Translations under genes and position numbers: made by a program | Notes under the pieces: model-generated | The model's input: only the letters and a program-made list of their open reading frames with translations | What the model was told of the DNA's origin: nothing | The model's database searches: none | Part shown: piece after piece, positions 4,936-50,765 of the stretch | Layout: each line of letters starts with the position of its first letter | Position numbering within the stretch: the first letter of the stretch is position 1 | Assembly: GCA_965200355.1 (NCBI GenBank) | Contig: OZ241351.1 | Location: forward strand, 1,714,426-1,778,425 | Direction: 5' to 3' | Source of the DNA: an uncultured Candidatus Binatia bacterium | Lineage (GTDB): Bacteria > Desulfobacterota > Binatia > Bin18 | DNA length: 64,000 bases

Positions 4936-4962
4936 GCGCGCGGGGCAGGAAGGAGGCCAATC

Positions 4963-5784
4963 ATGACAGACCACGGCTATGCTCGACCGGATATGCTGGC
5001 AGAGACCCAATGGCTGGCAGCGCATCTCCAGGATGACAATCTGCACGTCGTTGATTGCGATAATCGCGACGCCTATCGCCGCGCCCATATTCCGGGGGCG
5101 ATTCCCGTGCGCGGCCATCATTATCTCAAGGAAAAAGAAGGCGCGCCGCATATCATGGGCCCGGACCAATTCGCCCAGACCATGGGACAGATGGGCATTG
5201 GGGACGACACGCTCGTGGTGGCCTATGACGGCTTCAGCGGGCTGTACGCCGCCCGGCTGTGGTGGGCGCTGCACTATTACGGTCATACCAATGTCAGAGT
5301 ATTGAACGGTGGCTGGGACACATGGCTGGCCGAAGGCCGGCCGATGACAAACGCCTCGTCCCGTCCGGCCAAAGCGACCTTTACGCCCCAGATTCACGCC
5401 GACCTGCTCGCCGGCTGGGAGCAGGTCCGGGCAGCGATTGATTCCGATACCGTCCTGCTTGATGTGCGCTCGGATGCGGAGTGGACCGGCGAGAACAGCC
5501 GGGGCACCAAGCGGGGCGGGCGGATTCCTGGCGCGGTCCATCTCGAATGGCTCAATTTTGTGAACCCTCAGACAAAAAAGTTCAAACCTGCGGCCGAATT
5601 GCGTCCCCTGTTGGCACAGGCCGGAGTCAGACCCGAGGGGGCAGTCGTTACCTATTGACAGGGGGGTATCCGTGCGGCGCACGGACTGTTCACCCTCCGG
5701 CTGCTCGGTTTTGACACTGTGCGCAATTACGATGCCTCCTGGGCCGAATGGGGCAACCGCGAGGACCTGCCGCTGGAAAAATAG
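4963..5784 (+). CDS. two-domain rhodanese / 3-mercaptopyruvate-type sulfurtransferase with in-frame TGA (5656-5658) at the catalytic Cys position; candidate selenoprotein (alternatively a nonsense pseudogene)
   Basis: N-domain ...[11 protein letters not shown]; C-domain ...[13 protein letters not shown]...VVTY-[TGA][32 protein letters not shown]...DLPLEK stop. The frame is continuous through the TGA to TAG at 5782-5784 (822 nt = 274 codons). Confidence 0.6.
5661..5698 (+). other. SECIS-like stem-loop immediately 3' of the in-frame UGA
   Basis: Perfect hairpin ccgtgc-ggc-gcacgg (5670-5684) starts 11 nt after the UGA. An outer gggggt/accctc pairing extends it. Confidence 0.4.
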
Positions 5785-5806
5785 GCCCTGGTGACGCGCG
5801 TCTCGT

Positions 5807-6685
5807 ATGGCTGGCTGTAGACAATTGCTGTGGCTCCTGGCCGCCCTGCTGCCCGGTGTTTTTCTCTCCAGCCACATCTGTCTCGCCCAGCCCCAGGCCG
5901 AACCCCACGGCAGCCTGCTCATCCAGACTCCGGGAGAGCCGGCTCAGACCAGTGGGCTCTCGGCCAGAATCTACCCCCCGACATCCGAGACGCGCCTCAT
6001 CCAAACCCCCCTGAACACGCCGGTCTCGTTGCCCCCCGGATCCTACCGCGTTGAACTCGACATCCTGGGCGGCACGATTTCGCGCGAGCGCGTACTGGTT
6101 CGGTCCGGTCGAACCAGTACGGTCATGCTGAGCGAAGTCGCGGCCCTTCAGGTCAACGTCCTGGATAAAAACGGCCAGGACATCGGCCTCGGGGTCGAGG
6201 TCTATGACGGCGTATCCAACGAACTGCTCGGAGCGTTCCTGAGCGGAGAGATCATCCTGGCGCAACCGGGCCTGGTCGATGTCAAGGTCGCCGTTCCACC
6301 CCAGAGCCAGTGGTGGCGCGATATTGAGCTTTTGCGGGGCGGACTCCGGGAACTGACGTTGCGCGAGCGGGTGCGGGCTGAACTCCTGGTCCATCCCCGG
6401 CTGGCAGGGCAAGATGTCAGCCGGCTGACTCAGGTCATTATTTACGCCGCGGGGACGCAAAAAGAGATTGCCCGCAGCGAGCCCGGCCAGGAACATCGCT
6501 TTGTCCTGGAGACGGGCAGCTATGATGTGTTTGTGGCCAACCCAACGGGACGGGGCAAACCCTTTGTGCTGGAACGCGCGGAACTCCCGGATGAAAAAAC
6601 CGTCGAAAAGGAGGTCCACCTGGATGGACCGGTCAACCCGCCGGCGACACCGCCCCCAAGCCATTCGGAACCGCACGCCCTCTAA
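5807..6685 (+). CDS. hypothetical secreted protein (signal peptide)
   Basis: N-terminal MAGCRQLLWLLAALLPGVFLSSHICLA signal. Strongly GC-biased third positions in this frame, unlike the overlapping antisense ORF. Confidence 0.55.
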   Translation: MAGCRQLLWLLAALLPGVFLSSHICLAQPQAEPHGSLLIQTPGEPAQTSGLSARIYPPTSETRLIQTPLNTPVSLPPGSYRVELDILGGTISRERVLVRSGRTSTVMLSEVAALQVNVLDKNGQDIGLGVEVYDGVSNELLGAFLSGEIILAQPGLVDVKVAVPPQSQWWRDIELLRGGLRELTLRERVRAELLVHPRLAGQDVSRLTQVIIYAAGTQKEIARSEPGQEHRFVLETGSYDVFVANPTGRGKPFVLERAELPDEKTVEKEVHLDGPVNPPATPPPSHSEPHAL

Positions 6686-6703: not shown

Positions 6704-6958
6704 GTGAAGTCCGTCCATACCGAGCAGTACCGCGAGTTCCGAGAACTCATGGTCGCGGCAAGGAAAGCCACCGGCCTGACTCAGGCGGAACTCGCTAGGC
6801 AGTTAGGCAAACCACAGTCTTACGTGTCAAAATATGAACGTGGTGAGCGCCGCCTTGATGTCGTCGAGTTCCTGACACTCGCCGCCCTGCTGCATGTCGA
6901 CCCTCACGCCTGTATCACCAGACTGAGCGGCAAGTCTCCCAAGCGCGGGGCGTCATGA
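6704..6958 (+). CDS. XRE-family helix-turn-helix transcriptional regulator (84 aa)
   Basis: GTG start 7 nt after ggaggag. HTH_3 signature ...ATGLTQAELARQLGKPQSYVSKYERGER. Lower-GC islet. Confidence 0.7.
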   Translation: MKSVHTEQYREFRELMVAARKATGLTQAELARQLGKPQSYVSKYERGERRLDVVEFLTLAALLHVDPHACITRLSGKSPKRGAS

Positions 6959-7362
6959 AAACGACCAGCGATGTCATCCAAGCGGCCAGTGTCCACCTGG
7001 CAACGCTCACCGGCCATGTTTTCGACCTCCTCACCATTGCCAAACCACGCTCTCCCGAAGCCGCTGTCAACTTGGCGAAAGATGCCTTCTCCTATCAACC
7101 GACGCCAGAATATCAGGCCAAACTTCGAGAACTAATTGCGAGGTATCCGTACCGCCTGGACACAAATTTTGCCAAGATCAATAGAATCAACCAGGCCGAG
7201 ATTGCCGCATTCAAGCATAAGGTGCTCAACGCTGAGCACCACGGAAAAACAATACGAGCATGGGCGCGGCTCCTGGGACGGGGGAACGAAACCGAGCTTC
7301 AAAAAGCACTTGAGGACAACGTAGACATCAGAGCAGCGGATTCTGAAGACAGCGCTCAATAA
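6955..7362 (+). CDS. hypothetical protein (135 aa), translationally coupled to the XRE gene
   Basis: ATGA overlap with the upstream stop. No recognisable domain. Confidence 0.45.
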   Translation: MKTTSDVIQAASVHLATLTGHVFDLLTIAKPRSPEAAVNLAKDAFSYQPTPEYQAKLRELIARYPYRLDTNFAKINRINQAEIAAFKHKVLNAEHHGKTIRAWARLLGRGNETELQKALEDNVDIRAADSEDSAQ

Positions 7363-8420
7363 CGCGCTTCTGCCCAAAGTAGTAATACGTCGGATCAATC
7401 TCGCTGCCAAAGGCCCGCCGCTTGAGGTCATGCGCCGCAATACAGGTCGTAAATAAACCGCCAAAAGGCTCCCACACCACGTCGCCAGCCTCGGTTGAGG
7501 CTTCAATGATTCGTGAAATCAGGTCAAGCGGCTTCTGATTCAAGTGAAGCGCCTTGCCGTTTAAGCCAGGTGTTGTATATCGCTCCGCACCACGCAAAGC
7601 AGGGCGCTCCCATACATTTGTCACACCGTGCGGGCAGTGAAACTTAGAACGGTATCTTTTCCAAGCCTGCGCCGTTGCGGGTCTCTTCCCGTCTAACGAA
7701 AAATATGGTCGGCCTTCCGGTTGGCCATACTCATTCGCATAGCGCTGCATTTTCTCGAACATTTTCGGTGGCGGGTAGTACCACAGGTGGCTCTGGTCCA
7801 GATACTTCCGAACAGCAACGTCTTTGACGCCGCACGCCTCGTTCGCTCGCTTCAGGGGTAAGCCGGTTCGTTTCCATTCCCGATACAGCCATTCCTTCAG
7901 CACCAGCCCATTCACACGGGGCTCAAAAACGTACTGAATGCAGACTTCCGTCACAACGGGAAAACGTCGTATTTTCTTTGTATTCACATTCCCCGCGATA
8001 TGGCCCTTCCCCTTATTCCACACATTGGCGTTCACATAGCGCCACCCGTACTTTTCCAGGATGGGGTGAACAGCCGCCCAGCCGATTTCAGAATTCCAAA
8101 ACCACAGGGTCGTGTCAGGTTTCGCTTTTCGAGCCCAGGCCGCAATGTGTGGTTCCATACCACTCTGGTAAACCCAAATGGTCGGACGTGTCCCCCTCGA
8201 AACCGAGGACACCATACCCGCCGTCTGACACTATGGCGGTCGGCGCTTCCCACGAGTCGTACTGCTCAAGACTGTCGCCTAGCGATATACCGAGTCCATC
8301 CGACCAAATAGACGACTCCGGCGTAAAATCCTCTTTCAACGCTCGTCCTCGCCCTACCGTATTCGTCGGTGTTATTTTTTTCTTCCTTTTGGGCAGCAAA
8401 GGCATTGAGTGAGCTTTCAT
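7328..8420 (-). pseudogene. N4/N6 DNA methyltransferase-like gene (beta class, N6_N4_Mtase family), frameshifted with degenerate catalytic motifs
   Basis: The C-terminal ORF (7328-8215) carries ...LHLNQKPLDLISRIIE...VWEPFGGLFTT... matching the QKP / FxGxGTT region, but with GGLFTT in place of GSGTT. The N-terminal part lies in another frame (8115-8420) with IVSDGGYG where DPPY is expected. The frame switch is near 8150-8170. Confidence 0.55.
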
Positions 8421-8516
8421 GCCCCCATTATTAACCCATTTTAGGATATTGTCAACGCAGCCCCTCTCCTACTCATGTTGAGAGATGTCCCGTTGGTGTG
8501 AAATGAAGCCCCCCGC

Positions 8517-8762
8517 TTACCACATCAGGAGCGGAATGGCCGCGGCGAGGAGCAGCACGCTGAGGCAAATGGCAATGATACCCCAGAAGGTCGGCGGACG
8601 ACGGACCTCCAGGGTGGCCCCGCAGTGGACACACGCGGACAGAAACGAGCCGCCGGTCACATAAACACGGTTCCACTTATGACAGATAGCGCAGCGGGGG
8701 TGAGGGCGGGCACGAAAAAGTGCAGCAAGCTGAGACACGATTTCTTTCCTCTCTTCTTTCAT
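8517..8762 (-). CDS. small zinc-ribbon membrane protein (hypothetical)
   Basis: CxxC...CxxC (CAICH...CVHCG) followed by one TM helix. Confidence 0.4.
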   Translation of the reverse strand: MKEERKEIVSQLAALFRARPHPRCAICHKWNRVYVTGGSFLSACVHCGATLEVRRPPTFWGIIAICLSVLLLAAAIPLLMW

Positions 8763-8803
8763 CCTAACGGGGGGACAGAGGCCGCGTCAACCGGGCAGTC
8801 TGC

Positions 8804-9613
8804 CTACCAACGATTCTTGGCATGATGTCGAGCGGTGAGGCGCGGGGCCACAAGTTCCAAAAGCTGGGTGTGCAGCCGGCCATTGCTGGCAACCACGCCC
8901 TGCAAGAGCGTGGTCGGCTGATTAAAGCGGACCGGCTTCCCGCTGAGGGTCGTGACTCGTCCCCCGGCTTCCTCGACGAGGAGCGTGCCGGCGCAAATAT
9001 CCCACTCGTTCTTGGGCCTCAGTGTAAACGAGGCGTCGGCCTCGCCACTGGCGAGACACGCCAGCTTGTAGGCAATGCTGCCCAGAGGGCGGGCACGAAA
9101 AAGCGAGGTGAAGTCTTTCCACTCCCCCCGTTTAGTCTCCGAGCGACTGGAGAGAATAGTCGCCTCGGCCAAACGCGACGTTGCAGGCACGCGCAAGGGG
9201 CGGCTCCCGCACCACGCCCCTTGTCCGCGGACCGCCCAGAAGAGCTGGTCCAGGCTGGGATGATAGACCACACCGAGAATCGGCCAGCCAGCTTCAATGA
9301 GTCCGATAGAGACCGCAAATTCCGGGATTTTCTGAATGAACTCCTGGGTCCCGTCCATCGGGTCAACCACCCAGACGCGGCGCGTGGTCAGCCGCGCGGG
9401 CGAATCGACCGTCTCTTCCGACAGCCAGCCATAGTCAGGGAAATTCGCGTGGAGCATGGTGTGGATCTTCCGGTTGGCCTCCCGGTCGGCACGTGTGACC
9501 GGACTGTTATCTCCGCTTTTATACTCCACTGTGTAGTTGGTCTCGTAGATGGTGCGGATGATGTCTCCCGCGGCGCGCGCGGCCGCAATGGCAAGGCTTT
9601 TCTCTTTTTCCAT
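8804..9613 (-). CDS. inositol monophosphatase family / 3'(2'),5'-bisphosphate nucleotidase (CysQ-like)
   Basis: IMPase metal-binding motifs (WVVDPMDGTQEF, ...WDICAG...). Confidence 0.8.
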   Translation of the reverse strand: MEKEKSLAIAAARAAGDIIRTIYETNYTVEYKSGDNSPVTRADREANRKIHTMLHANFPDYGWLSEETVDSPARLTTRRVWVVDPMDGTQEFIQKIPEFAVSIGLIEAGWPILGVVYHPSLDQLFWAVRGQGAWCGSRPLRVPATSRLAEATILSSRSETKRGEWKDFTSLFRARPLGSIAYKLACLASGEADASFTLRPKNEWDICAGTLLVEEAGGRVTTLSGKPVRFNQPTTLLQGVVASNGRLHTQLLELVAPRLTARHHAKNRW

Positions 9614-10591
9614 TTACTGTCCCAACACCTGAGCAAAGATCAGCGGGGCGACAATCGAGGCGTCCGATTCAATCAGGTAGCGCGGGGTGTCCACGCCAAG
9701 TTTCCCCCAGGTAATTTTTTCGTTGGGAACCGCCCCGGAATAGGAGCCATAACTGGTCGTGGAATCACTAATCTGACAAAAATAGCCCCATAGCGGGGTG
9801 TGGGTGCGTTTCATGTCCTGGATCAGCATCGGCACCGCACAGATAGCAAAATCTCCGGCAATCCCCCCACCAATCTGAAAAAACCCGATGGAGTGCTGCG
9901 CCGAGACCGTACTATACCAATCGGCCAGATACGTCATGTATTCAACGCCGTGCCGCACGGTATGGACATTCTTCATCAGGCCAGTCATGCAATAGCTGGC
10001 GTACACATTCCCGCAGGTGGAATCCTCCCAGCCGGGCGCAACAATGAGCAGGTCTTTTTCCATAGCGGCATGGACCCAGGAGGCTTTGGGATCAATCTGA
10101 TAATAGGGTTGCAGCATACCGGTCCGCAGGATTTCGTAGAAGGTCTCGTGTGGAAAGGCCCGCCGGCCGGCGTGGTCGGCCCGCATCCACAATTCCTGGA
10201 GGACGCCTTCGACCCGACGCATAGCCTCAAACTCGGGAATGCAGGTATCGGTCACGCGGTTCATATGCCGGTTGAGCAGGCCCTGCTCATCCTGAGGCGT
10301 CAAGTCCCGATAGTGTGGCACCTGCTCATAGTGCTCATGCGCGACCAGATTAAAAATATCTTCTTCCAGATTCGCGCCCGTGCAGGAGATGGCGTGAATG
10401 CAGTCAGCGCGGATCATTTCCGCCAGGGAGAGGCCGAGTTCGGCCGTACTCATAGCGCCGGCCATTGCCAGCAACATCTTGCCGCCCCGGTCGAGATGCT
10501 GCCGATAGGCGGTGGCCGCCTCGACAACGGTGGCGGCATTAAAATGCCGAAAGTGGTGGTGCAGAAAGTCGGTGATGGGTTGACGGCTCAT
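9614..10591 (-). CDS. deoxyhypusine synthase family protein (homospermidine-synthase-like)
   Basis: Full-length similarity to the DHS family (NAD-binding ...SCTGANLEEDIF..., ...GGGIAGDF...). Adjacent to the CysQ-like gene. Confidence 0.75.
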   Translation of the reverse strand: MSRQPITDFLHHHFRHFNAATVVEAATAYRQHLDRGGKMLLAMAGAMSTAELGLSLAEMIRADCIHAISCTGANLEEDIFNLVAHEHYEQVPHYRDLTPQDEQGLLNRHMNRVTDTCIPEFEAMRRVEGVLQELWMRADHAGRRAFPHETFYEILRTGMLQPYYQIDPKASWVHAAMEKDLLIVAPGWEDSTCGNVYASYCMTGLMKNVHTVRHGVEYMTYLADWYSTVSAQHSIGFFQIGGGIAGDFAICAVPMLIQDMKRTHTPLWGYFCQISDSTTSYGSYSGAVPNEKITWGKLGVDTPRYLIESDASIVAPLIFAQVLGQ

Positions 10592-11298: not shown

Positions 11299-12969
11299 TT
11301 ACCTCTCAGCCAGCGCTTTCTGAATAGCTTTCAGTTCAGCGTTGGTGATGCTCCATATTTTGGCCGCTGCCGCGTCTATTTCAGCCTCTAATGCTGCCAC
11401 CTTGTCCGTGCCGTTTTGTTTTGCCGTGACATGGCACCGCCGAGAAAGACCGGCGACGCGATTGTGGAGCTTCTCCGTCTTTTTGAACTGAGGAATGGCT
11501 ATGTTCTTCATAATGTGTGGTGACGGATGCAGAACAATATAGGACGCAGCGGCTACATAAGCAGGTGAAGAATTGAGCATTCCGGCGACGAAATAAGCCT
11601 CATCCTCGCTACCGCAAGAAACGGCCACGATTGTATGGTCGGGTAAAGAGGGCTTCACCTTCTCGACCGTTGAGGGACCGGATACGCTCGCACGGACGGA
11701 GTGTCCCACTTCCGGCCAGAGGACTTTCCATTCCTTCATCGTGTAACGTCCGACATTATACATAGAGTAAAAAGGATCACTCGGCTTAAAGTACTGACGA
11801 TAGCCGGAGCGACCGCGCAGGGTGCCATGCTCAGGCTTTTTGGGATCGCCTTCAAACCGCTTCAGGTACGAATATGTTTTCGGCCAGCGCCGCTTCATTG
11901 CGGCTTCGGGAATACCCTTCCGTGTCTCCGGGTCTTGGGCCAGAATGATGTGTGTTGAAGGTGCTGCGTGCCAACGCTGCACGTCTCTTCCGCGTAGCAA
12001 GGGATAGACCAAGGCCGGCTCGATGACGGCCTGTACGTGTTTGACCGGAATTTTCCCAACGTTATGCAGGTTCTCGATCAAGAGTTCCCCGCTGGGAAGT
12101 GTATCTATGATGTTGACCCAGTACACACCATTCAGCCACGTACAGCAGCCAGCATAGGCTTGGTAATCGCTCGGCCCGATGACTTTCTGAAGACCGGGCA
12201 GGGCTGGCGTCGGGGCGGTGAGCCACGGGGACGAGTCCTTTGAAGCCACAACAGGCATGGCTCCTATTTTGTGTTGGGTGGTCGCAGTACGCACGCCGGC
12301 TAACGATTCGTCTTGGGCAAGGCGCGACGGCCCAGCCCACGTCGTATACCGCACAGGATACGTGAAGGGGCGCGTCGTTTTTTCGCAGACAAAGACCGCG
12401 GTCCGATTGGTCGCCCCTTCAAAAACCTGCGTGGCACTCAGATCATGAACAATACGGGGCTTCAGTCGCCACGTTGTTTTTGGTTCTGTCCGGTCGTATC
12501 TGAGTCTACGGAAACCATCGCCCGCGCCTTGGGTCTTGAAGACGCTCTGCGTAATGACGAAACCAAGCCGCCCGCCTTCTTCGAGATAGTTGTCCACGGA
12601 GGAGTAGGTAAACAACATGGAGATGTCCTTCTTGCCGCCGCCCAAGCGACCTGCGGACCCCGATAGCGTGAACAGATTGTATCCCTCCCAGAGGGGTTTC
12701 ATGGCATCGCGGTAGCCGTCGGGCAGGTTCTCCCAATTCACCCAGGGCGGGTTGCCAGCCACATAATCCACTTTCCCGATGAAGAGGGGCGCAAAGGCAT
12801 TTTTGATGATCCGCGCCCAAATACCGTTTTGATTGCTGGCGTCAAGCTGTTGGAGTTTGCCATACAGGTTCTTGTGGAGCGTGGCATCGGTCGTCGGTAA
12901 GGATTCGGCCTCACAGCGTTCGAGGAATTCTTCGGGCGAATAATCATCACGAATGCAAGACTCAATCAC
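11299..12969 (-). CDS. Type IIG restriction-modification enzyme, C-terminal portion (N6-adenine MTase motif IV NPPW plus target-recognition region)
   Basis: ...DYVAGNPPW... near the N-terminus, about 500 aa of TRD-like sequence after it. GTG start overlaps the upstream stop (GTGA). Confidence 0.6.
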   Translation of the reverse strand: MIESCIRDDYSPEEFLERCEAESLPTTDATLHKNLYGKLQQLDASNQNGIWARIIKNAFAPLFIGKVDYVAGNPPWVNWENLPDGYRDAMKPLWEGYNLFTLSGSAGRLGGGKKDISMLFTYSSVDNYLEEGGRLGFVITQSVFKTQGAGDGFRRLRYDRTEPKTTWRLKPRIVHDLSATQVFEGATNRTAVFVCEKTTRPFTYPVRYTTWAGPSRLAQDESLAGVRTATTQHKIGAMPVVASKDSSPWLTAPTPALPGLQKVIGPSDYQAYAGCCTWLNGVYWVNIIDTLPSGELLIENLHNVGKIPVKHVQAVIEPALVYPLLRGRDVQRWHAAPSTHIILAQDPETRKGIPEAAMKRRWPKTYSYLKRFEGDPKKPEHGTLRGRSGYRQYFKPSDPFYSMYNVGRYTMKEWKVLWPEVGHSVRASVSGPSTVEKVKPSLPDHTIVAVSCGSEDEAYFVAGMLNSSPAYVAAASYIVLHPSPHIMKNIAIPQFKKTEKLHNRVAGLSRRCHVTAKQNGTDKVAALEAEIDAAAAKIWSITNAELKAIQKALAER

Positions 12970-14564
12970 ATCGGCATAGCGCCCGATATGCTCTTGGCTC
13001 TCTCAGTCATTTCAGCCGGGATATTGAAATCGCCGGCGCTGGTCTTGATCTGTCGCGTATTGCTCATGCCTCCCGTGAACACGTCGCCGTATGCTGAGGG
13101 GGTCATAATCGAATCGCAGAGATAGACGGGCAATTCGACGGTATCAGCATGACGCAGCAAATCGCGGAGGGCCATCAGGTAGTTCGTCCGGGCGGCCATG
13201 ACCGCCAGCGGATTGAGGTCGAAACCAATAATGTTGCGCAGAATTTTCCGCAGTAGTTCGTCTTCGCCAAAGCCACAGGCGTAGCGGTGCTCGTCATACC
13301 ATGTTTTGACACGGTTCAGGGCCATGACGAGAAAGCTGCCGGAACCGCAGGCGGGGTCGAGCAGGCGTTTGTCCGGGTTGCCGTCGTAGCCGAGTTCGTC
13401 AAGGACCAGCTCGGCCAGCCAGTCGGGCGTGTAGTACTCGCCCAAGTCGTGCCGGACGGACTTGGGAAAAAGTTGCTGGTAGAGCTGTTTAAGCAAATCG
13501 CGCGATTCTGCCGGGTCAACACTGAGGGTGGTCGAATCGAACCGGTCCAGCGACCGGGTGAGGCCACGGACGGCCTGGGCGCAGTCCTCGTTCCAGGCGT
13601 CCAGATACCAGGAGAAGAGGTCGCCTTCGAGAAAATTGCGAATGCCGAGCTGTGACCAGATGCCCCCTTGTTCGAGATTGCGCAGTTCCTCCCGTAATTT
13701 GGCCGGAGTTGGCGCAGAAACGAGTCTTTTGAGGGCTGAGGTTCCAAGAGGAGAAAAGGCCGAGACAATCTCGGCGGCCAGCATTTTCATGAACAGGGCG
13801 TAGTAGGTATGAACGGCAAACAGGAGGGCAGACGGAGAGGGGTGAGACACCTGATAGTGATCGGCCAGTTGCCTGACTTTGGGGTTCTGACCATGAATGT
13901 CATAGCCACACACTTCACCGAAAAGAATCTGCCATTGACGGAAGAACGTCTGCGCCTTCGGGCTGTCTGTCGTGCGGATGAGGTCATGGAGAAGCCGCAC
14001 GCCGTGCTGTGCGCTCTGGGCCTCGGAGCCGAAAGAATCCGTCAGATTCTCGGGGGTAAAGGAAAGGCCCCGCGCGCCCAGGGAGACGAGCGCCCGCAGC
14101 AGGCGTTGGACCGTATACGGCGTGACAGGTTGGGCGTCCTCAGCCTCAAGCTTTGCCCCGCGGGTGCGGACAAAGACCATGCGCGCGCCGTCGCACCCAA
14201 TCCCGAGAATGCGTTCCATGCCGACGTGCTCTTCTGCCTGTAAGTCTCGGAAGCGGCTCTTGATCTGGGTAACGACGGCCTTGAATCCCCGGGCGTTTCT
14301 CTGCTCCGTGATTCTGTCCGACCCCTTGGGGTCTTTGTACTCAATGACCACCCCGCCGTATTTGGAATCAATGCGCCCGCCGGCAAGACCGTATTCATGC
14401 CGGCCCTGGACAGTCAGCCCCGCTTTCTTGATGAACTCGTCAATGAGCTTATTGCACTCGTGGCGAATATCTTCCTCTGAGCCGGCCCATGCGACCGCCT
14501 GCACCATCTGATCGGCCATGAGCTTGGCGTGGTGCGCAATCAAGGCTTCGAGATTCTGACTCAT
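12966..14564 (-). CDS. Type IIG restriction-modification enzyme, N-terminal portion (PD-ExK nuclease motif plus MTase motif I)
   Basis: GGRIDSKYGGVVIEYK (D...EYK nuclease motif) near the N-terminus. ...LLDPACGSGSFLV (AdoMet motif I). The ORF stops about 180 aa before the NPPW found in the next ORF. Confidence 0.6.
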   Translation of the reverse strand: MSQNLEALIAHHAKLMADQMVQAVAWAGSEEDIRHECNKLIDEFIKKAGLTVQGRHEYGLAGGRIDSKYGGVVIEYKDPKGSDRITEQRNARGFKAVVTQIKSRFRDLQAEEHVGMERILGIGCDGARMVFVRTRGAKLEAEDAQPVTPYTVQRLLRALVSLGARGLSFTPENLTDSFGSEAQSAQHGVRLLHDLIRTTDSPKAQTFFRQWQILFGEVCGYDIHGQNPKVRQLADHYQVSHPSPSALLFAVHTYYALFMKMLAAEIVSAFSPLGTSALKRLVSAPTPAKLREELRNLEQGGIWSQLGIRNFLEGDLFSWYLDAWNEDCAQAVRGLTRSLDRFDSTTLSVDPAESRDLLKQLYQQLFPKSVRHDLGEYYTPDWLAELVLDELGYDGNPDKRLLDPACGSGSFLVMALNRVKTWYDEHRYACGFGEDELLRKILRNIIGFDLNPLAVMAARTNYLMALRDLLRHADTVELPVYLCDSIMTPSAYGDVFTGGMSNTRQIKTSAGDFNIPAEMTERAKSISGAMPM

Positions 14565-15595
14565 GTCAGGCTGCCCTTTCCAGGGGGAGCCGGCTGTATC
14601 AGCGCTTGCAGCGCGTGGCCGGTTGGTGCGCCCCGCAGCGCCCGGCCTCTGGAGTCAGGCGTCAGCGCTTGGGTCACTAACTGCTGGAAATCCACCTTGC
14701 GCTCAGCCCAGTCCCGGACGGCGGCAAGGCGGTCGAAGAGCGCCAGACGCACGGCGTAGGCGTCGGTCTCGTCCGGCTGCCCGGTGGCGCTGTCCGGTGG
14801 GGCGTAGGGTCGCGCCTCGGTCAGAAACCGCGCCACCTCAGCCGGGACGTGGGCCGAGAGGTCTGTGGCCCCTCCCCCGGTCTGCCGTATTGCGGTTGAG
14901 GAGAGACCGGCCACAGGCTCGGGCAGGGCCAGGAAATGGATCGCGTCCCGGTAGGGCTGGTTGGCGGGGCGCTGTAACAACTCGTCAAACGCGCGCCGGG
15001 CCATATCGCCCCGGTTGGCAACAACAAGCGAGGTCAGCGCAAAAAGCTGTTCCAGGGCGGCCTCTCGGTCCTGGTAGTAGCGCGCGTCCAGAATCTGCAC
15101 CAGCTTGTCCATACCCACCATAAAAAACAGTCCGACCTGCGCGTCAAAGAGGGCCTGAAATGCCTGGGCTTGCTCAAAATAGAGCCCACGGTTGACCAGG
15201 GCCACGCCGAGCTGTGGCTGCTGTTGGACATGCAGGAGGAGCAACAAGAGGCGGTCCTCCAGACTCATCCCGCTGACCTGTTCCTTATCGACTGTGACCT
15301 TGGCCATCGTGTATAAGAGTTGGTCCAGTTGGAATACGCGGCCGGCGTGCTGGGCGAGCGCGCTGTGGGCCAGGGTGAGCGGATTGAAGGACCCGCACAA
15401 GACGCCCAGCCGTTGCGGCCGCGGGTGCGGTGGTGCGGACAACAGACAGGCCGCCGGCGGCCCGGCACTATCGAGAGACTGAAGACGGTCCCGCAGCGCA
15501 AACAAGCGGGACAAGTCGTAAAATGCGGGTGACATAGCTGACCCGACAGCATACACGACTTCGACCCACTGCGCAGGCCGAGCCGGAGCCAGCAC
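14561..15595 (-). CDS. NadD-like nucleotidyltransferase (nicotinate/nicotinamide-nucleotide adenylyltransferase family) with N- and C-terminal extensions
   Basis: GVLCGSFNPLTLAH (HxGH-type motif with Gly-to-Ala), ...FMVGMDKL..., LSSTAIRQ (ISxT.IR motif). ATGA overlap with the RM ORF start. Confidence 0.55.
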   Translation of the reverse strand: MLAPARPAQWVEVVYAVGSAMSPAFYDLSRLFALRDRLQSLDSAGPPAACLLSAPPHPRPQRLGVLCGSFNPLTLAHSALAQHAGRVFQLDQLLYTMAKVTVDKEQVSGMSLEDRLLLLLLHVQQQPQLGVALVNRGLYFEQAQAFQALFDAQVGLFFMVGMDKLVQILDARYYQDREAALEQLFALTSLVVANRGDMARRAFDELLQRPANQPYRDAIHFLALPEPVAGLSSTAIRQTGGGATDLSAHVPAEVARFLTEARPYAPPDSATGQPDETDAYAVRLALFDRLAAVRDWAERKVDFQQLVTQALTPDSRGRALRGAPTGHALQALIQPAPPGKGSLT

Positions 15596-15681: not shown

Positions 15682-17487
15682 ATGCGTTTCCCTGCCTTTG
15701 TCGTGAGCGCTTGCCTGCTTTGCGCCCTCATCCCGCTGGCCTCGTGCAGCACGGCTCGCCCCACCCTAGCCCCGGTGCGGAGCGCCCCCCCAGCCGTTCC
15801 CGCTCAGACCAGACCCGCGCCGGCGCTGCCCATTCCGGGCACGCCAGTGGTGCTCGCCCCTGAAGATCGGGCCCTCGGGCATTTCTTCAAAAGCCAAGTC
15901 GCCCTGCATGAGGGCGACGCTGAGACCGCGCTCAGCGAGCTTGAACACGCCGTCTCTCACGACCCTCACACGCCCTTCCTGCGTCTGCGGCTGGCCACTA
16001 TGGCCTTACGCCAGGGCAAGCTGGCCGAGGCCCTGGAACATTGCCAGCAGGTCGTGGCCAGCGAGCCGGACAATGTGACGGCCCAGCGTCTCCTGGCCGG
16101 CCTGCTCTCCTCGACCGGCCAGGAAAACGAAGCCGCTCAGGTCTACGAATCCCTGCTGACGCAGGGTTCTGACGACCAGGAACCGTATCTCTACCTGAGC
16201 GTGCTGTATGCTAAGCAAGAGCGATTTGAGGACGCGATTGGCGTGCTCAAAAGACTGGTCAGCCGTCACCCCCAATCGGTCCTGGGCTATTATTATCTCG
16301 GCCAAACGCACGCCGCGGCCCAGCGGTTTGAGCAGGCGGAAACCTATTATCACGAGGCGCTCAGCCTCAATCCGCAGTCAGAACTGGTCCTGCTCGACTT
16401 CGCGCTCCTGTATGAGCTGCAAAAGAAAAACACCCAGGCCAGAGAGATGTATGAGCAAGCCCTGAGCCTCAACCCGCGCAGTGAGCGGGCGCGGGAGCGG
16501 CTCGGCCGTTTCTATCTGGGCCAGCAGAAGCTTGATGATGCGCTGGACCAGTTTCAGGCACTTGAAAAAATAGAAGCCGACCCGCAGGAGACGCGACTCA
16601 AAATCAGCCTGATCTATCGAGAAAAAGGCGATTACGAAAAGGCCGCCACCGCCCTCAACCTCGTTTTAGCCGCCCAGCCCGAGAATCATCGCGCCCGCTA
16701 CTTTCTCGGCGTCGTGTATACAGAGGCCGACCAGGACACCCGGGCCGCGGTCGAACTCCTGCATATTCCTCGGCAGGCCGAGTATTTTGCCGACGCGCGC
16801 GTCTACTTGAGCTATATCTACCAGCGCCAGGGCAATATCGCCCAAGCCATCACCGCGGTGGAACAGGCCCTTAGCGTGAAAGAGGACGACCCGGACCTGA
16901 TTGGCTTTCTGGCTTCCCTCCATCGCGACAATAATGACCGGGCCAAAGCTGTCGAACTCCTTGAGCACCTCATCGAGGTCGCCCCGGACAACGATCAATA
17001 CCACTTCACGCTCGGAGCGGTCTACGACGAACTCAAACAAAAAGAGCGCTGCATCCAGCATATGCAGAAAGCCATTGCCCTGAATCCCGAGAATGACGCC
17101 GCGCTGAACTACCTGGGCTATACCTGGGCAGAGCAGGGCGTGCATTTAGATGAGGCTGAGCAACTGATACTCCGGGCGCTGGCCATCGAACCCAACGATG
17201 GTTTTTATATTGATAGTCTGGGTTGGGTGTATTATCAGCGCGGCGAGTATAGGGAAGCCATTCAGCACCTCGAACGGGCGGTGGAACTGGTTGATGCTGA
17301 CCCCACCTTGATTGAACATCTGGGGGATGCGTATACCAAAATCGGCCGCACCGCCGATGCCGCCCGCCTCTACCAGGAAGCCATCAAGAACACCTCCGAA
17401 GAAGCCCAACTTGAGCGTTTGCGGACCAAGCTGAACGCCTTGTCTCCGGTGGGCATACACAAGACGAGCGGCAGTGACCTCCAGTAG
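15682..17487 (+). CDS. TPR-repeat lipoprotein
   Basis: MRFPAFVVSACLLCALIPLASC signal with lipobox, followed by about 14 TPR-like repeats. Confidence 0.75.
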   Translation: MRFPAFVVSACLLCALIPLASCSTARPTLAPVRSAPPAVPAQTRPAPALPIPGTPVVLAPEDRALGHFFKSQVALHEGDAETALSELEHAVSHDPHTPFLRLRLATMALRQGKLAEALEHCQQVVASEPDNVTAQRLLAGLLSSTGQENEAAQVYESLLTQGSDDQEPYLYLSVLYAKQERFEDAIGVLKRLVSRHPQSVLGYYYLGQTHAAAQRFEQAETYYHEALSLNPQSELVLLDFALLYELQKKNTQAREMYEQALSLNPRSERARERLGRFYLGQQKLDDALDQFQALEKIEADPQETRLKISLIYREKGDYEKAATALNLVLAAQPENHRARYFLGVVYTEADQDTRAAVELLHIPRQAEYFADARVYLSYIYQRQGNIAQAITAVEQALSVKEDDPDLIGFLASLHRDNNDRAKAVELLEHLIEVAPDNDQYHFTLGAVYDELKQKERCIQHMQKAIALNPENDAALNYLGYTWAEQGVHLDEAEQLILRALAIEPNDGFYIDSLGWVYYQRGEYREAIQHLERAVELVDADPTLIEHLGDAYTKIGRTADAARLYQEAIKNTSEEAQLERLRTKLNALSPVGIHKTSGSDLQ

Positions 17488-21846: not shown

Positions 21847-24510
21847 TCACGCGACCTGAGACAAGGCATCCGGCGTCGGGGCTCTGGCTGTACGCGGACG
21901 TTTCGTTTTTGTCCGCTCGCGGACTTCCCAGCCGCCATCCCGGTAGTGGGCGCTCCAGCCGGTGGCCTTGCCGTCCACCTCGGAGGCGACGTACTGCTCG
22001 CGACTCTTGCGCGAGAATTTGATCATGGCGGGGTGCCCCTGCGGGTCGGCCTCGGGCGCGCTTAACAGAAAGTGAAACTTGGGGTCCAACTCGGCGGCGT
22101 GGGGCTGCAACTCGGCGACCAGGGGGGCGCGGGTCTCGCGGTTCCTGGGGAACTGGCTGGCGGCGAGAAAAATGCCGGCGGCGCCATCGCGCAGCACATA
22201 GTGATCGTCAACCCTCCGGCACTTGAGTTCGGGCATGGGCACGGGGTCGGCCCGCGCCGGCACCGGCTGACCGTTGCGCAGCAGCTTGCGCGTATTGCCA
22301 CACGTGCTGTTCGTACACCGGAAGTATTTACCGAACCGGCCGCTTTGCAGCCGCATTTCCGCGCCGCATTTCTCGCAGGCCAAGACCGGCCCGTCATAGC
22401 CTTTGAGGCGGAATTCGCCAGCCTCGACCGTCTGTCCAGCGCAGTCCGGCCCGTTGCCGCACAGATGCAGCTTGCGGGCTTCGTCAATCAGATAGGAATC
22501 CATTGCAGCGTCGCAGGTGGGGCAGCGCCGTTTGGCCCGCAGACGCCGGCTTTCTCCCTCATCGTCCGCCTCCGTATCAACCGCTTCCTCTCCAGGGACG
22601 AGATTCATGGTGCGCGTACAGCGTTCCGCCGGCGGTAGCGCGTATCCCGAGCAGCCCAGAAACACCCCGGTACTGGCCGTGCGGACCTGCATCGGACGGC
22701 CGCATTCATCGCACTGGACCGCGGTTGTGATGGGCTGGTTGGGCCGCATCCCTTCCGTGGCCCCAGCGACCTGGAGCCGCTGAGAAAAATCGGCGTAGAA
22801 GGCATCCAGCACGCTGCGCCACTCGCGTTCTCCCAGCGCGATCAGGTCGAGCTCCTGCTCCATGTCTGCGGTAAACGAATAATTGAGCAGATGGCCGAAG
22901 TTCTCTACCAGCCGGTCAGTGACGAGTTCGCCGATCTTCTCTGCCTGAAAGCGCCGCTTGTTGAGACTGACATAGCCCCGTTCCTGGATAGTCGAGATAA
23001 TCGCCGCATAGGTGGACGGCCGACCAATGCCGCGCTTCTCAAGCTCACGCACCAGGCTCGCTTCGTTATAGCGGGCCGGCGGCTTGGTAAAATGCTGCAC
23101 CGTATCGGTGCCGAGGCAGACCAGCCCGTCGCCCTGGACAAAGGCCGGTAGCTCTACCTCGCCTTCCTTACGCGAGGCCGGCGGTAACACCTTGGTGAAA
23201 CCGTCAAACTTGAGAATCCGGCCACGGATACGCAACTCGAACGGTCCGGCCTCGGCGGTGATGGTGGTACTGAGGTATTGGGCGCGCGTCATCTGACAGG
23301 CGATGAACTGGCGCCGAACGAGGTCATAGAGCCGCCCGGCATCCGCGTCCTGATTGCCGAGGTCCGTCGGTTCGACGGTCAGGGCGGTTGGCCGAATCGC
23401 CTCATGCGCCTCTTGGGCGGACGCCTTGCTGGCGTAGACATTCGGCTTATCCGGCAGATAGCGCGGCCCATGCTCGCGCTCGATATAGGTGCGCACCTTG
23501 GTCACGGATTCGCGCGACAGATTGGTCGAGTCGGTCCGCATATACGTAATATGGCCGGCCTCGTATAATTGCTGGGCCAGTCGCATGGTCTTGCGCACCC
23601 CAAAGCTCAGCCGGGTAGCCGCCGCCTGTTGGAGCGTAGACGTGATGAACGGCGCGCTGGGGCGGGCCTGAGTCGGTTTGTCCTCACGGCTGAGGACGGA
23701 AAAATCCTGCCCGGCCAGCCGGGCGGCCGCGGCGATGGCCTGTTCTTCCGTCCCCGGACGAAAGTCCGCTCCGTTCTCTTTTGTGACCTGGAAGCGATAG
23801 CTCGGTTCGTCGGCGCCTTTGGCCAGCTCGGCACAGAGCTCCCAATACTCCTCGGGGACAAAGGCGCGAATCTCCCGCTCGCGTTCCACAATGAGCCGCA
23901 CCGCAACCGATTGCACCCGACCGGCCGACAGGCCCCGCGCCACCTTGGCCCACAGGAGAGGCGACAGCTCGAAGCCGACCACGCGGTCGAGAAAGCGCCG
24001 CGCCTGTTGAGCGTTGACTCGGTTTTCGTCAATGTCGCCGGGGTGCGCAAACGCATCTTGAATGGCGCTTTTGGTAATTTCGTTAAAGACCACCCGCCGA
24101 AAGCGCTCGGGTGTCCCCCCAATCAGTTGCTTCAAATGCCAGGCGATGGCCTCGCCCTCGCGGTCACGGTCCGTCGCCAGATACACCGCGTCCGCGTTGT
24201 GGGCCAGCTTCTTCAAGTCGGCAACGACCTTCTCCTTGCCGGGCAATACCTCGTAACTCGCCGCCCAGTTATTGTCGGGATCAACGCCCATACGCGCGAT
24301 CAACTGGGTCCGGGCGTTCTTGCGGCCCGCCGCCTTTTGCGTCTTTTTGGTGCGCTTGCGGGCGGTCGTCGTCTTGCGTTCGGACTTGCCGCCGGTCGGC
24401 AAGTCGCGCACATGGCCGACACTGGACTTGACCGTATAGTTGCGGCCCAAGTAGCGGTTGATCGTCCGGGCTTTGGCCGGCGATTCGACTATGACGAGGT
24501 TTTTGGCCAT
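21847..24510 (-). CDS. topA: DNA topoisomerase I
   Basis: [14 protein letters not shown]...; Toprim and topoisomerase IA core; C-terminal zinc ribbons (CxxC repeats). Confidence 0.9.
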
Positions 24511-47286: not shown

Positions 47287-48380
47287 AAGAATTTAATCAC
47301 GCTGCGGGCCACCCCACCGCCCTCTTTTAAGAGGTCGTAGGCTTCGTTGACCTGTTCGAGCGCGAAGGTCTTGGAGACCAACTCATCGATCTTGATCTTT
47401 TTATCCACATACATGTCGATCAAGCGGGGCATGTCGATACGGGGACGGGTCGAACCGTAGTACGAGCCCTGAATCCGCTTTTCCATCAAACAAAAGATGT
47501 TCGGATTGAGTGAGATGCGCGCGCCGTCGGGCGACACGCCGACCACCGTACACAACCCGCCCCGGCCCGTCATCTTGAAGGCCAGCTCGATGGTCTTGGC
47601 CGTGCTGATGACCTCAAAGGCATAGTCAACACCCCGCCCGTGGGTAAGCTCCATCACCGCCTTGAAGGCGTCGTCCTGGCCGGGATTGATGGTATGGGTC
47701 GCGCCGAAAGTCTTGGCAAACTCCAGTTTCGAGTCGAGCAGATCGACCGCAATCACCTGCCGCGCCCCAGCCAGCGCGCAGCCCTGAATAACGTTGAGGC
47801 CCACGCCCCCACACCCAATGACCACCGTAGAGGAGCCGGGCTGGACATTCGCGGTGTTGACCGCCGCCCCCACCCCGGTCATGGTCCCGCAGCCCACAAA
47901 ACACGCCCGGTCGAGCGGAACGTCGTCTCGAATTTTGATGGCGCAGCTCTCGTGGACAACGGTCTCTTCGGCAAACGAGGCCGTGTACGCAAAATGAAAT
48001 ATCTCCTCATTGTTCTTGCGCAGGCGTGTCGTCCCGTCCACGAGCGTGCCGAGTGCTCTGGGCCGGGTTTCACACAGATGCGGTTTGCCCTGCGTACAAT
48101 AATGGCAGGTGCCGCACACCGGGTTGAACGACAGCACAACATGGTCGCCCTCTTTGACCGAGGTCACGCCAGCGCCCACCTCGACTACCACCCCAGCCCC
48201 CTCATGGCCCAGCACCATGGGCAGCGGCATCCGCATATCGCCGGTCATGACGTGCAAGTCACTATGACAGGCCCCGTTGGCCGCCACCTTGACCTTGACC
48301 TCGCCGGCCTTGGGCGGGTCAAGATGTAAATCTTCAATCACGAGTGGTTTGTTCGGCTCATATAATACCGCAGCTTTCAT
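47283..48380 (-). CDS. zinc-dependent alcohol dehydrogenase (class III / formaldehyde dehydrogenase-like)
   Basis: ATG 48380 after ggaggg. ...GHEGAGVVVEVG... and C..C..C..C structural-Zn motif. The longer 447-aa ORF is an upstream over-extension. Confidence 0.8.
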   Translation of the reverse strand: MKAAVLYEPNKPLVIEDLHLDPPKAGEVKVKVAANGACHSDLHVMTGDMRMPLPMVLGHEGAGVVVEVGAGVTSVKEGDHVVLSFNPVCGTCHYCTQGKPHLCETRPRALGTLVDGTTRLRKNNEEIFHFAYTASFAEETVVHESCAIKIRDDVPLDRACFVGCGTMTGVGAAVNTANVQPGSSTVVIGCGGVGLNVIQGCALAGARQVIAVDLLDSKLEFAKTFGATHTINPGQDDAFKAVMELTHGRGVDYAFEVISTAKTIELAFKMTGRGGLCTVVGVSPDGARISLNPNIFCLMEKRIQGSYYGSTRPRIDMPRLIDMYVDKKIKIDELVSKTFALEQVNEAYDLLKEGGGVARSVIKFF

Positions 48381-48529
48381 GGCCCTTCCCTCCTGTCGAT
48401 ACAAGCTCTCCCGTAGGAACTTGGAATGATAAACGGCTCGACGGGCGCTGTCCATCCGATTCCCACCAGGGCCGGCCAGGCATCGGGCCGGACTTTCACT
48501 GCTCCGACAAAGCAAGTTATAGTGCCGGG

Positions 48530-50765
48530 ATGCAAATCCATCGGAGTAGATCTGAAGGCCGGCTGGCCGGGCTGGTATTGCTGTCCGCCGTGATGCTGGC
48601 GCCGACGCTGGCGCTGGCTCAGCCACAGCACACGCTTGAAGATATGACGGTCACGGCCCGCAAGCAGGAGCAACGCGCCTTTGACGTGCCGCTGTCGCTG
48701 TCCGTGCTGCAAGACGAGGGGCTCAGTCGGCTGCGCTCGTCGGGTATGGACATCCGCTTTCTGAACAACCGGGTGCCCAGCTTACAGGCCGAGTCGTCCT
48801 TTGGGCGCTTCTTTCCCCGCTTCTATATTCGTGGCCTGGGCAATACCGACTTTGATATGAATGCCTCCCAGCCGGTGTCGGTGATGTATGACGGCATTGT
48901 GTTGGAAAACGCCCAACTCAAGAGTACCCCTGTTTTTGATGTCGAGCGCATTGAGGTGTTGCGTGGCCCGCAGGGGACGCTGTTTGGGCGCAACACCACG
49001 GCCGGCTTCATCAAGATCGAATCGGCCCGCCCGACCTGGGATGTCGAGGGATATGGCCGCTTGTCCTACGGGCGTTTCAACAGTGTCAATTTCGAGGGAG
49101 CCCTGTCCGGGCCGTTGATCCCGTCCATACTGGCGGCGCGCGCCTCGGTGTTGGTCCAGCGGCGGAGCCACTGGGTGGACAACACCTACACTGGTGAGGA
49201 CGGCGCTCGGGGCGGCTATCGTGATGTGGCTGGCCGGCTTCAATTTTTATTGACGCCGGTGGAAAACTTTTCTGGGCGGTTCAAGGTGCATATCCGCGAC
49301 TTTGACGGCTCGCCCCGCCTCTTCCGGGCCAATGTGCTGAAGCTGGGCCATACCGACTTGGTGTCGGGCTTCCGCCGCGACAAAATCGGCCATGACGCGG
49401 ACAGTGACGCGCGGGTCAGCGGCCACGGCTTTGCCTCCGAATTGCACTACACGCTTGGGCCGGTCGAGCTCATCTCGCTGACCGGCGGAGAATGGCTCGA
49501 CGGCCTTTCGCGCGGTGATGTGGACGGCGGCTATGGCGCGGTCTTTCATCCGCCCAGCGGGCCGGGCCTGATTCCGTTTCCCGCCGAGACCGCGGACAGG
49601 ATTCCGTCCCTGCGCCAGCTCAGCCAGGAGTTTCGGCTGGAACACACGGCCTGGCAGCGGCTGAACTGGCGGGGGGGGGTCTTCTATCTCCACGAGGAAC
49701 TCGACATGTTCGGCCTCAACTACGATACCCTGGCCGGGAATATCGAGAATGGGCGTATCCAGCATGAGCCAACGGACCGAGGCGTGGGCCGAGTTTACCG
49801 CGGCCACCTTCGCCCTGACCGAGAACATCGAAATCGCCGCCGGGGTGCGCGTCTCCGAGGACGATAAGGAGTACCGTATCGAACGGCTCCGGTCGCCCAT
49901 TGGCGCGGGTCCGCTGGGCCCGCTTCGCGAGGCTCCGCGCGACTTGGTGCCGAGTTGGGACCTGAGCCTGCGCTATCAGCTCCGGCCCGGCATCCAGCCC
50001 TATGTACGGCTGGCCAGCAGCTTTCGTGCTCCCAGCATTCAGGGCCGGCTGTTGTTCAGCGACGAGGTGACGGTAGCGGACACCGAAGACATTCTCTCGG
50101 TTGAGCTTGGTCTGAAGCTGCGGTTGTGGCAGCGGCGCCTGCATCTTGATCTGGCGGCGTATCATTTCTGGATGAACGATCAACAACTGACCGCGGGGAG
50201 CGGGGTGGACAACATCAACCGCCTGCTGAACGCCGACCGCACCATCGGCCGGGGCATTGAGGCCGAAGGAGCCGTGGCCCTGGGCTACGGCCTGCACCTG
50301 ACGGCCGGCCTGAGTTATAACTATACCCGGCTGGACGATGCGGGTCTGTTCGTTCAGCCGTGCGGCGCGGCCTGTACGGTCCTTGACCCACCCGGCCCGG
50401 TTCCGGGCACGGTCTCCATTGACGGCAACCGTTTGCCTCAAGCCCCGCGCTGGATCGCCAGTCTGAACCTGAGCTATACGCGGGTGCTCGCCAGCGGCGC
50501 GGCGCTCATTCTTGCGACCGACTGGGCGTATCGCAGCCGCATCAACTTTTTTCTGTACGAGTCACGCGAGTTCCGCGACAATCATCTGCTTGAGGGTGGC
50601 CTGCGCCTGACTTGGTTGTCGGCTTCGGGCGGGTTGGAAGTGGCCGCCTTTGGCCGAAATATCCTGAACAATGTCTCGCCCACGGGCGGTATTGACTTCA
50701 ACAACCTGACCGGTTTTCTCAACCAGCCACCCGTCTGGGGTATCGAAGCAACGCTGCGCTTGTGA
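48530..50765 (+). CDS. TonB-dependent receptor; single-base frameshift near 49765-49770 splits it into two ORFs
   Basis: Signal peptide. Plug domain (...VLRGPQGTLFGRNTTAG). C-terminal beta-barrel in a second frame (49749-50765) ending ...GIEATLRL. Confidence 0.7.

Follow-up and report, generated by a model that had tools for sequence, protein, structure and literature searches.

Selenocysteine (Sec) was assigned to rhodanese-related sulfurtransferases (COG2897) when the Sargasso Sea metagenome revealed them as a new selenoprotein family, with a predicted bacterial Sec insertion sequence (bSECIS) (Zhang, Fomenko, Gladyshev 2005; PMC1088965). Among the five rhodanese-type selenoprotein forms of a 2026 catalogue, two (forms 2 and 4) are named "rhodanese-related sulfurtransferase" and carry the motif UxxG (PMC13188914). 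Here, a gene of this kind is analysed in a 64,000-nucleotide stretch of contig OZ241351.1 from an uncultured Candidatus Binatia bacterium, referred to as the window. The initial annotation of the window, citing rhodanese-related sulfurtransferases as a known selenoprotein family (correctly, as both papers document), proposed that the gene at 4963-5784, with an in-frame TGA at 5656-5658, is a candidate selenocysteine sulfurtransferase. Comparative evidence, namely TGA in 55 related loci, selection on the codons downstream of it, and a constrained hairpin, supports this interpretation. The open reading frame (ORF) very probably encodes one 273-residue two-domain rhodanese-type sulfurtransferase in which the nucleophile is predicted to be selenocysteine.

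The rhodanese gene and its in-frame UGA

Apart from the TGA, the 822-nt gene contains no internal stop or frameshift in its translation. Gene callers end the ORF at 5658 and report a product of 231 aa. When the TGA is read through, two stretches of the protein match Pfam PF00581 (Rhodanese; E = 3e-37), corresponding to two tandem domains. Sequence, translation and Pfam thus confirm the initial description of a two-domain rhodanese ORF that is interrupted by a single TGA and then stays open to the TAG ending at 5784. In a phmmer search against the PDB, the read-through protein aligns over residues 5-273 with two-domain rhodanese/SseA homologues; the E-values over the PDB two-domain rhodaneses range from 1e-33 to 1e-45, with Thermus 1uar at E = 2e-45. 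The initial placement of the TGA at the active-site Cys holds against the structures: in 1uar, 8k55 and 3hzu, the residue opposite codon 232 is precisely the catalytic Cys ("ivvyCriaerssh" on the structure side). The active-site loop, located in the C-terminal domain, has six residues, QGGIRA, following the nucleophile codon UGA. The score against the NCBIfam 3-mercaptopyruvate sulfurtransferase (3-MST) equivalog is 140 bits, below the cutoff of 250.

Elsewhere in the window, TGA serves as an ordinary stop: the topA ORF, for instance, terminates with this codon ahead of a separate trmFO-type (GIDA-family) gene. The genetic code is therefore not reassigned. This junction, at 21847, and a second one at 36977, between the genes for phosphoenolpyruvate mutase and PrpD, join same-frame ORF pairs through a TGA; both pairs were considered as selenoproteins and rejected, being separate genes.

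Relatives with TGA or a Cys codon at the catalytic position

The gene was compared at the DNA level with 80 related loci, one genome per species (species-representative genomes). TGA occupies the catalytic codon in 55 of the 80, which come from Binatia, Methylomirabilota, Chloroflexota (Dehalococcoidia and others) and one Planctomycetota; TGC is found in at least seven. Four additional metagenomic relatives, fetched separately, have TGC or TGT at this codon and complete a set of 11 Cys forms. The Sec and Cys codons fall in the same alignment column, with TGA in 56 sequences and TGC/TGT in the 11 homologues, in line with the initial assignment. The frame 3' of the TGA is open and homologous in every Sec-type locus, and the architecture is shared by the orthologues of 55 genomes. 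Candidatus Binatia metagenome-assembled genomes (MAGs) supply the closest relatives.

Of the 80 database proteins closest to the read-through protein (63-87% identity), some 60 have a length of 230-235 residues and span 85% of the query. The short relatives that were fetched all end in ...(V/I)TY, i.e., at the residue preceding the catalytic position, and the public labels on relatives are 232-residue "sulfurtransferase" or "thiosulfate/3-mercaptopyruvate sulfurtransferase". Interspersed among the short proteins are full-length relatives that continue past the catalytic position; Cys forms among the proteins are P0002, P0003, P0005, P0046, P0061 and others.

Codon usage was analysed in an alignment of 41 Binatia-type orthologues. 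The 41 codons following the UGA are the best-conserved part of the protein, the mean frequency of the major residue being 0.975 over these residues versus 0.85 over the 231 preceding ones. Synonymous variation is abundant outside the hairpin described below; for example, Val253 is encoded by GTC, GTG and GTA in the proportion 14/13/13. Judged from this pattern, the region 3' of the UGA is translated and under strong purifying selection. The closest Cys relatives, which are 72-74% identical to the window protein, retain vestiges of the hairpin and look like products of a recent Sec-to-Cys replacement.

Two observations concern individual relatives. The Planctomycetota homologue (L082, 10001-10792) is 36% identical, has TGA at the catalytic codon, a loop of U-QSGGRS and a different downstream structure, and could represent a Sec form that is independent or strongly diverged. 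Seven MAG contigs (L024, L031, L032, L039, L040, L043 and L083) bear the record title [quoted passage not shown]; their genes show 74-79% identity to the Binatia rhodanese with the synteny preserved, and the "Enterobacteriaceae" label looks wrong.

The hairpin downstream of the UGA

The hairpin reported in the initial annotation, CCGTGC-GGC-GCACGG, is present at 5670-5684, 11 nt past the TGA, and one more U-A pair extends it to 17 nt (5669-5685). For comparison, the minimal SECIS of E. coli fdhF is a 17-nt mini-hairpin about 11 nt past the UGA. The extended hairpin lies within all limits of the published bSECIS model (PMC13188914): the apical loop has 3 nt, GGC (model, 3-9 nt), and begins with G-G (a G is required among the first two positions); the upper stem has 7 bp (4-16 bp); the spacing from UGA to loop is 17 nt (16-37 nt); and the minimum free energy (MFE) is -9.9 kcal/mol (-7.5 kcal/mol or lower).

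The codons that make up the hairpin, ATC CGT GCG GCG CAC GGA (5668-5685), are invariant in all 41 Binatia-type orthologues. Only seven of 160 conserved degenerate codon columns lack synonymous variation, and these are the six consecutive hairpin codons plus the Tyr codon TAT before the UGA; outside the hairpin, 153 of 154 such codons vary. Codon entropy averages 0 across the hairpin, compared with 1.15 bits for the other codons (Mann-Whitney p = 2e-5). The flanking codons, Gly-Gly directly 5' and Leu-Phe directly 3', vary freely.

Pairing was analysed in 47 distinct Sec-type sequences, where 99.4% of the cells of the 7-bp stem are paired. Two compensatory changes occur at pair 5670/5684 (C-G is replaced by A-U in L057 and by G-C in L062), and three other stem pairs show G.U wobbles. 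The hairpin sequence is near-invariant across several phyla and is identical even between proteins that are only ~50% identical. The complete set of seven pairs is present in 53 of the 56 Sec forms versus 1 of the 11 Cys forms, and the mean MFE of the 17-nt hairpin is -9.5 kcal/mol in the former and -3.3 kcal/mol in the latter; the Cys forms encode the same peptide using the stem-breaking codons CGC, GCC, CAT, CAG and AGC/AGT. On these alignments, the hairpin is under RNA-level selection only where the catalytic codon is UGA. The earlier suggestion that structure and spacing are of the SECIS type is thus borne out by the fit to the model, the conservation of the stem, and its decay in Cys forms. 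The outer stem that was part of the same suggestion (5661-5698) fared less well. Its arms, 5661-5667 and 5692-5698, do pair in the window sequence, but pairing extends to only 62% of cells in the 47 sequences; the outer stem was rejected as a conserved feature and is considered sequence-specific, not part of the element.

The Tyr codon directly before the UGA (5653-5655) is TAT in all 41 Binatia-type Sec forms and in 46 of the 50 Tyr codons found among all Sec forms, whereas the Tyr codon preceding the nucleophile in Cys forms is TAC or TAT about equally. This bias may reflect a codon-context constraint on UGA recoding.

Table 1. Positions of the predicted selenoprotein gene and its elements in the window
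Feature	Position	Strand	Remarks
Shine-Dalgarno sequence GGAGG	4951..4955	+	Read from the sequence; 7 nt 5' of ATG 4963
Full-length gene, predicted selenoprotein, two-domain rhodanese-type sulfurtransferase	4963..5784	+	273 residues; predicted Sec is residue 232
UGA, predicted to encode Sec as catalytic nucleophile; active-site loop U-Q-G-G-I-R-A	5656..5658	+	Codon 232; alignment with the catalytic Cys
41 post-UGA codons	5659..5781	+	Rest of active-site loop and C-terminal helix/strands of the catalytic domain; translation would need UGA recoding
Putative bacterial SECIS core	5669..5685	+	7-bp stem UCCGUGC/GCACGGA; apical loop GGC at 5676-5678; MFE -9.9 kcal/mol
True stop codon TAG	5782..5784	+	Same protein end as in Cys homologues P0002, P0003, P0005

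Selenocysteine machinery near the orthologues

The window and 1.2 Mb of related loci were searched by tblastn using E. coli SelA, SelB and SelD as probes; ARAGORN was applied to the window and 60 related loci, and an Rfam screen for Sec machinery to the window. Only two matches to Sec machinery were obtained across the window and the 1.2 Mb. One is a tRNA-Sec with anticodon UCA in the Binatia locus L041 (8740-8835), which scores 73.8 bits against Rfam RF01852 (gathering score 47) and lies 1.2 kb upstream of a TGA-containing rhodanese orthologue. The other is a selD homologue in L049, a Dehalococcoidia chromosome, at 16415-17475 on the minus strand and ~6 kb from the rhodanese orthologue. This selD has an in-frame TGA at the position of Cys17 of E. 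coli SelD ("ECGG*AGKFSQ") and, by this alignment, probably encodes a selenoprotein itself.

About 2.4 kb further upstream of the tRNA-Sec, L041 encodes a 420-aa pyridoxal phosphate enzyme (5123-6382, minus strand) that scores 195 bits against TIGR03576 (cutoff 304), the MJ0158 family, which is related to SelA. ARAGORN also produced long calls of 90-93 nt, tRNA-Arg in L007 (8566-8658) and L010 (8568-8660) and tRNA-Trp in L030 (504-593). These have no similarity to the L041 tRNA-Sec, the two tRNA-Arg calls lie inside the coding sequence of the luciferase-like oxidoreductase, and all three were set aside as probable false positives.

Alternative explanations

A number of results weigh against a selenoprotein. 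No tRNA was found in the 64-kb window by ARAGORN and no tRNA-Sec by Rfam, tblastn gave no SelA, SelB or SelD match there, nor did selA, selB or selD appear when most of its large ORFs were surveyed with Pfam. The hairpin, though present, is not statistically remarkable alone: in this G+C-rich DNA, the region folded by itself is no more stable than dinucleotide-matched shuffles (z = -0.05). Rfam at gathering thresholds found no SECIS-like family, and no match at all, in the whole window, and at a permissive E-value it returned only a chance microRNA match (E = 8.5) in 5600-5790. The significance of the hairpin therefore comes only from the comparative data. Covariation is confined to one pair because the stem hardly varies. 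To our knowledge, no Sec rhodanese has been biochemically characterized, and the chemical role of selenium is inferred. The lack of Sec machinery in the window would also suit a UGA that is read through without Sec, either by hairpin-stimulated near-cognate or suppressor decoding (as Trp, Cys or Gly) or in a selenium-independent attenuator, producing a mixture of truncated inactive and full-length protein. Stop-proximal hairpins can indeed stimulate read-through, and UGA followed by C, as is the case here, is a weak termination context in E. coli. Such decoding is nevertheless improbable: at the catalytic nucleophile position, where the homologues have Cys, only Cys or Sec would be workable; the hairpin agrees with the bSECIS model in loop sequence and spacing; the tRNA-Sec and the Sec-containing selD lie next to or near orthologues; and rhodanese-related sulfurtransferases are a previously catalogued selenoprotein family.

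The other explanations deny that the full-length protein is made from an intact gene. A TGC or TGT could have been misread as TGA, the genome being apparently a metagenome-assembled chromosome and indel-type errors having been reported in the window by the initial annotation; substitutions, however, are not the usual long-read error type. Assembled contigs were compared, identity across assemblies serving as a proxy for a read-level check. The 822-nt gene, TGA included, is identical to the window in 13 of 13 contigs fetched, from assemblies of 10 independent Sequence Read Archive runs (SRR33991067-98), and the 231-residue truncated product is recorded from many contigs. This identity excludes a sequencing or assembly error for practical purposes, and with TGA also present in the orthologues of 55 other genomes, its probability is negligible. 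A chance nonsense mutation in the catalytic Cys codon of a decaying gene would equally explain a single in-frame stop and the 231-232-aa "sulfurtransferase" of gene callers and public annotation, and the window does contain at least one other probable frameshifted gene. Yet the TGA is common to 55 species-level genomes of several phyla and no other lesion is seen in the gene, which makes decay very improbable. Alternatively, the 231-residue product, ending where the gene call ends, could be a functional non-catalytic rhodanese module, as inactive rhodanese domains exist in nature, and the downstream conservation could belong to an RNA element or a small ORF. Truncation, however, would remove the active-site loop and the last helix/strands of the catalytic domain as seen in the PDB homologues. 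Conservation at the amino-acid level extends in the rhodanese frame over 123 nt, whereas the RNA-level constraint covers 17 nt only, and inspection of 5659-5781 revealed neither a start codon nor a ribosome-binding site for a separate ORF. There is thus scarcely any likelihood of a functional module. Both a pseudogene and a functional truncated product are ruled out by the conservation of the post-UGA residues, the strongest in the protein, alongside ordinary and abundant synonymous change.

Proposed mechanism

For the selenocysteine enzyme, a mechanism can be proposed from the established bacterial pathway and from rhodanese chemistry. SelB.GTP.Sec-tRNA(Sec) would bind the hairpin, acting as the bacterial SECIS, while the ribosome approaches, and the bound complex would be positioned such that Sec is inserted at the UGA in the A site and termination is avoided, yielding the 273-residue enzyme. 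In the double-displacement cycle, the selenolate would replace the Cys thiolate: a donor of sulfane sulfur (thiosulfate, for example) would convert it into an enzyme-Se-S(-) intermediate, from which the sulfur would then be handed to an acceptor.

A further proposal is that the Sec-rhodanese clade is a selenium-trafficking enzyme and not a faster sulfurtransferase, with a perselenide or selenosulfide on the enzyme delivering Se to SelD or other acceptors, and that the gene plus its SECIS, near-invariant in Binatia, Methylomirabilota and Chloroflexota, spread horizontally as a cassette among Sec-using soil and groundwater bacteria. The weak hints in this direction are the orthologues located beside the tRNA-Sec (L041) and near selD (L049), and the identity of the hairpin at ~50% protein identity; the proposal is considered unlikely.

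Gene neighbourhood and other features of the window

The order luciferase-like oxidoreductase, enoyl-CoA hydratase, rhodanese and secreted 292-residue protein is kept in many Binatia relatives, with a deoxyhypusine-synthase-like gene further downstream on the opposite strand. This context of the rhodanese gene points to no function. The 292-residue protein (5807-6685) has an N-terminus resembling a signal peptide and matches neither Pfam nor NCBIfam, and its gene directly follows the rhodanese gene in most relatives, including the Cys forms L084-L086. The window otherwise contains ordinary chromosomal genes: topA, the trmFO-type gene, dprA, argS, uvrD, acyl-CoA metabolism genes, sbcCD and others.

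Between the secreted-protein gene and the deoxyhypusine-synthase-like gene lies a block (6704-9600) that is absent from most Binatia relatives. It consists of an HTH_3 regulator (6704-6958), a small ORF (6955-7362), an N6/N4 DNA methylase (7328-8215, minus strand) and a Pfam-less ORF (8768-9793); L008 shares the regulator, the small ORF and the methylase. The G+C content at third codon positions is 0.56-0.60 in the block versus ~0.72, and the block looks like an inserted restriction-modification-type cassette. At 11299-14654 on the minus strand, methylase domains of the Eco57I and N6_Mtase/MmeI types are encoded by two long overlapping ORFs, which lie in different frames and may represent one type IIG restriction-modification gene split by a frameshift, due either to an indel error or to a pseudogene. 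Similarly, a TonB-dependent receptor on the plus strand (48299-50762) is apparently split, with the Plug domain in 48299-49864 and the beta-barrel in 49665-50762, in another frame and with an overlap of ~200 nt. This is consistent with indel-type errors, as noted in the initial annotation, or with a pseudogene.

Comparison with known systems

Solved thiosulfate sulfurtransferases (TST) and 3-MSTs, including 1uar, Mycobacterium SseA (3hzu), CysA-type proteins (3hwi/3aax), Azotobacter RhdA (1e0c) and the bovine enzyme (1rhd), align with the present protein over its full length. As in that protein, their N-terminal rhodanese domain is inactive and the C-terminal one catalytic, and an active-site loop of six residues follows the nucleophile; the nucleophile is specified by a Cys codon in these proteins and by UGA in the present gene. 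The loop QGGIR differs from all of those compared: RIAER/RIGER, RKGVT (bovine TST) and GSGVT (3-MST). Among the other rhodanese-type proteins, Rhodanese_LYCAU (NF041203; form 3, CxU), ExtH and TsoB have in common with the present protein a rhodanese fold able to carry Sec, but differ in motifs and architectures. The present protein scores 32.8 bits against NF041203 (cutoff 115) and 56.8 bits against ExtH (cutoff 200).

The putative SECIS resembles those of E. coli fdhF and fdnG, and the bSECISearch model, in being a stem-loop within the coding region 3' of the UGA, with G in the first loop positions and a spacing in the 16-37 nt range. Unlike the fdhF/fdnG elements, its loop is only 3 nt (GGC), no bulged U is apparent in the upper stem, and the sequence is unrelated. 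This compact bSECIS, combining a 7-bp stem and a GGC triloop with clear synonymous-site constraint, provides a test case for selenoprotein gene finders and is a possible minimal element for recombinant Sec insertion.

A literature search found no paper linking Binatia with selenocysteine, the sole co-occurrence being an entry in a reference list. The present results indicate that members of this uncultured class use selenocysteine, which had not previously been noted for the lineage. They also correct a systematic annotation error: this gene, like dozens of its orthologues, has been called as a "sulfurtransferase" of 231-233 residues without the active site.

The closest described system is the COG2897 Sec family. 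Shared features are the PF00581 fold, the two-domain SseA/COG2897-type architecture, predicted Sec in place of the catalytic Cys, the UxxG motif (here U-Q-G-G), a bSECIS directly downstream inside the coding region, and widespread Cys homologues. The present protein fits the published description by virtue of its U-Q-G-G motif and COG2897-type two-domain architecture; it was matched by this description rather than by the sequences of AACY01016424, MCY3690685.1 and MBM9537886.1. These published example accessions were not found in a cluster look-up of the NCBI-sourced relatives queried, which returned MGH7962920.1 and MGE0820563.1, both 232-aa "sulfurtransferases". Whereas the family was first described from the Sargasso Sea, the present clade comprises Binatia and Dehalococcoidia from terrestrial, groundwater and other habitats. 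The gene is thus a new, mis-annotated member of an already known selenoprotein family, and it leaves knowledge of the selenoprotein families themselves unchanged, Sec-containing rhodanese-related sulfurtransferases having been described in 2005.

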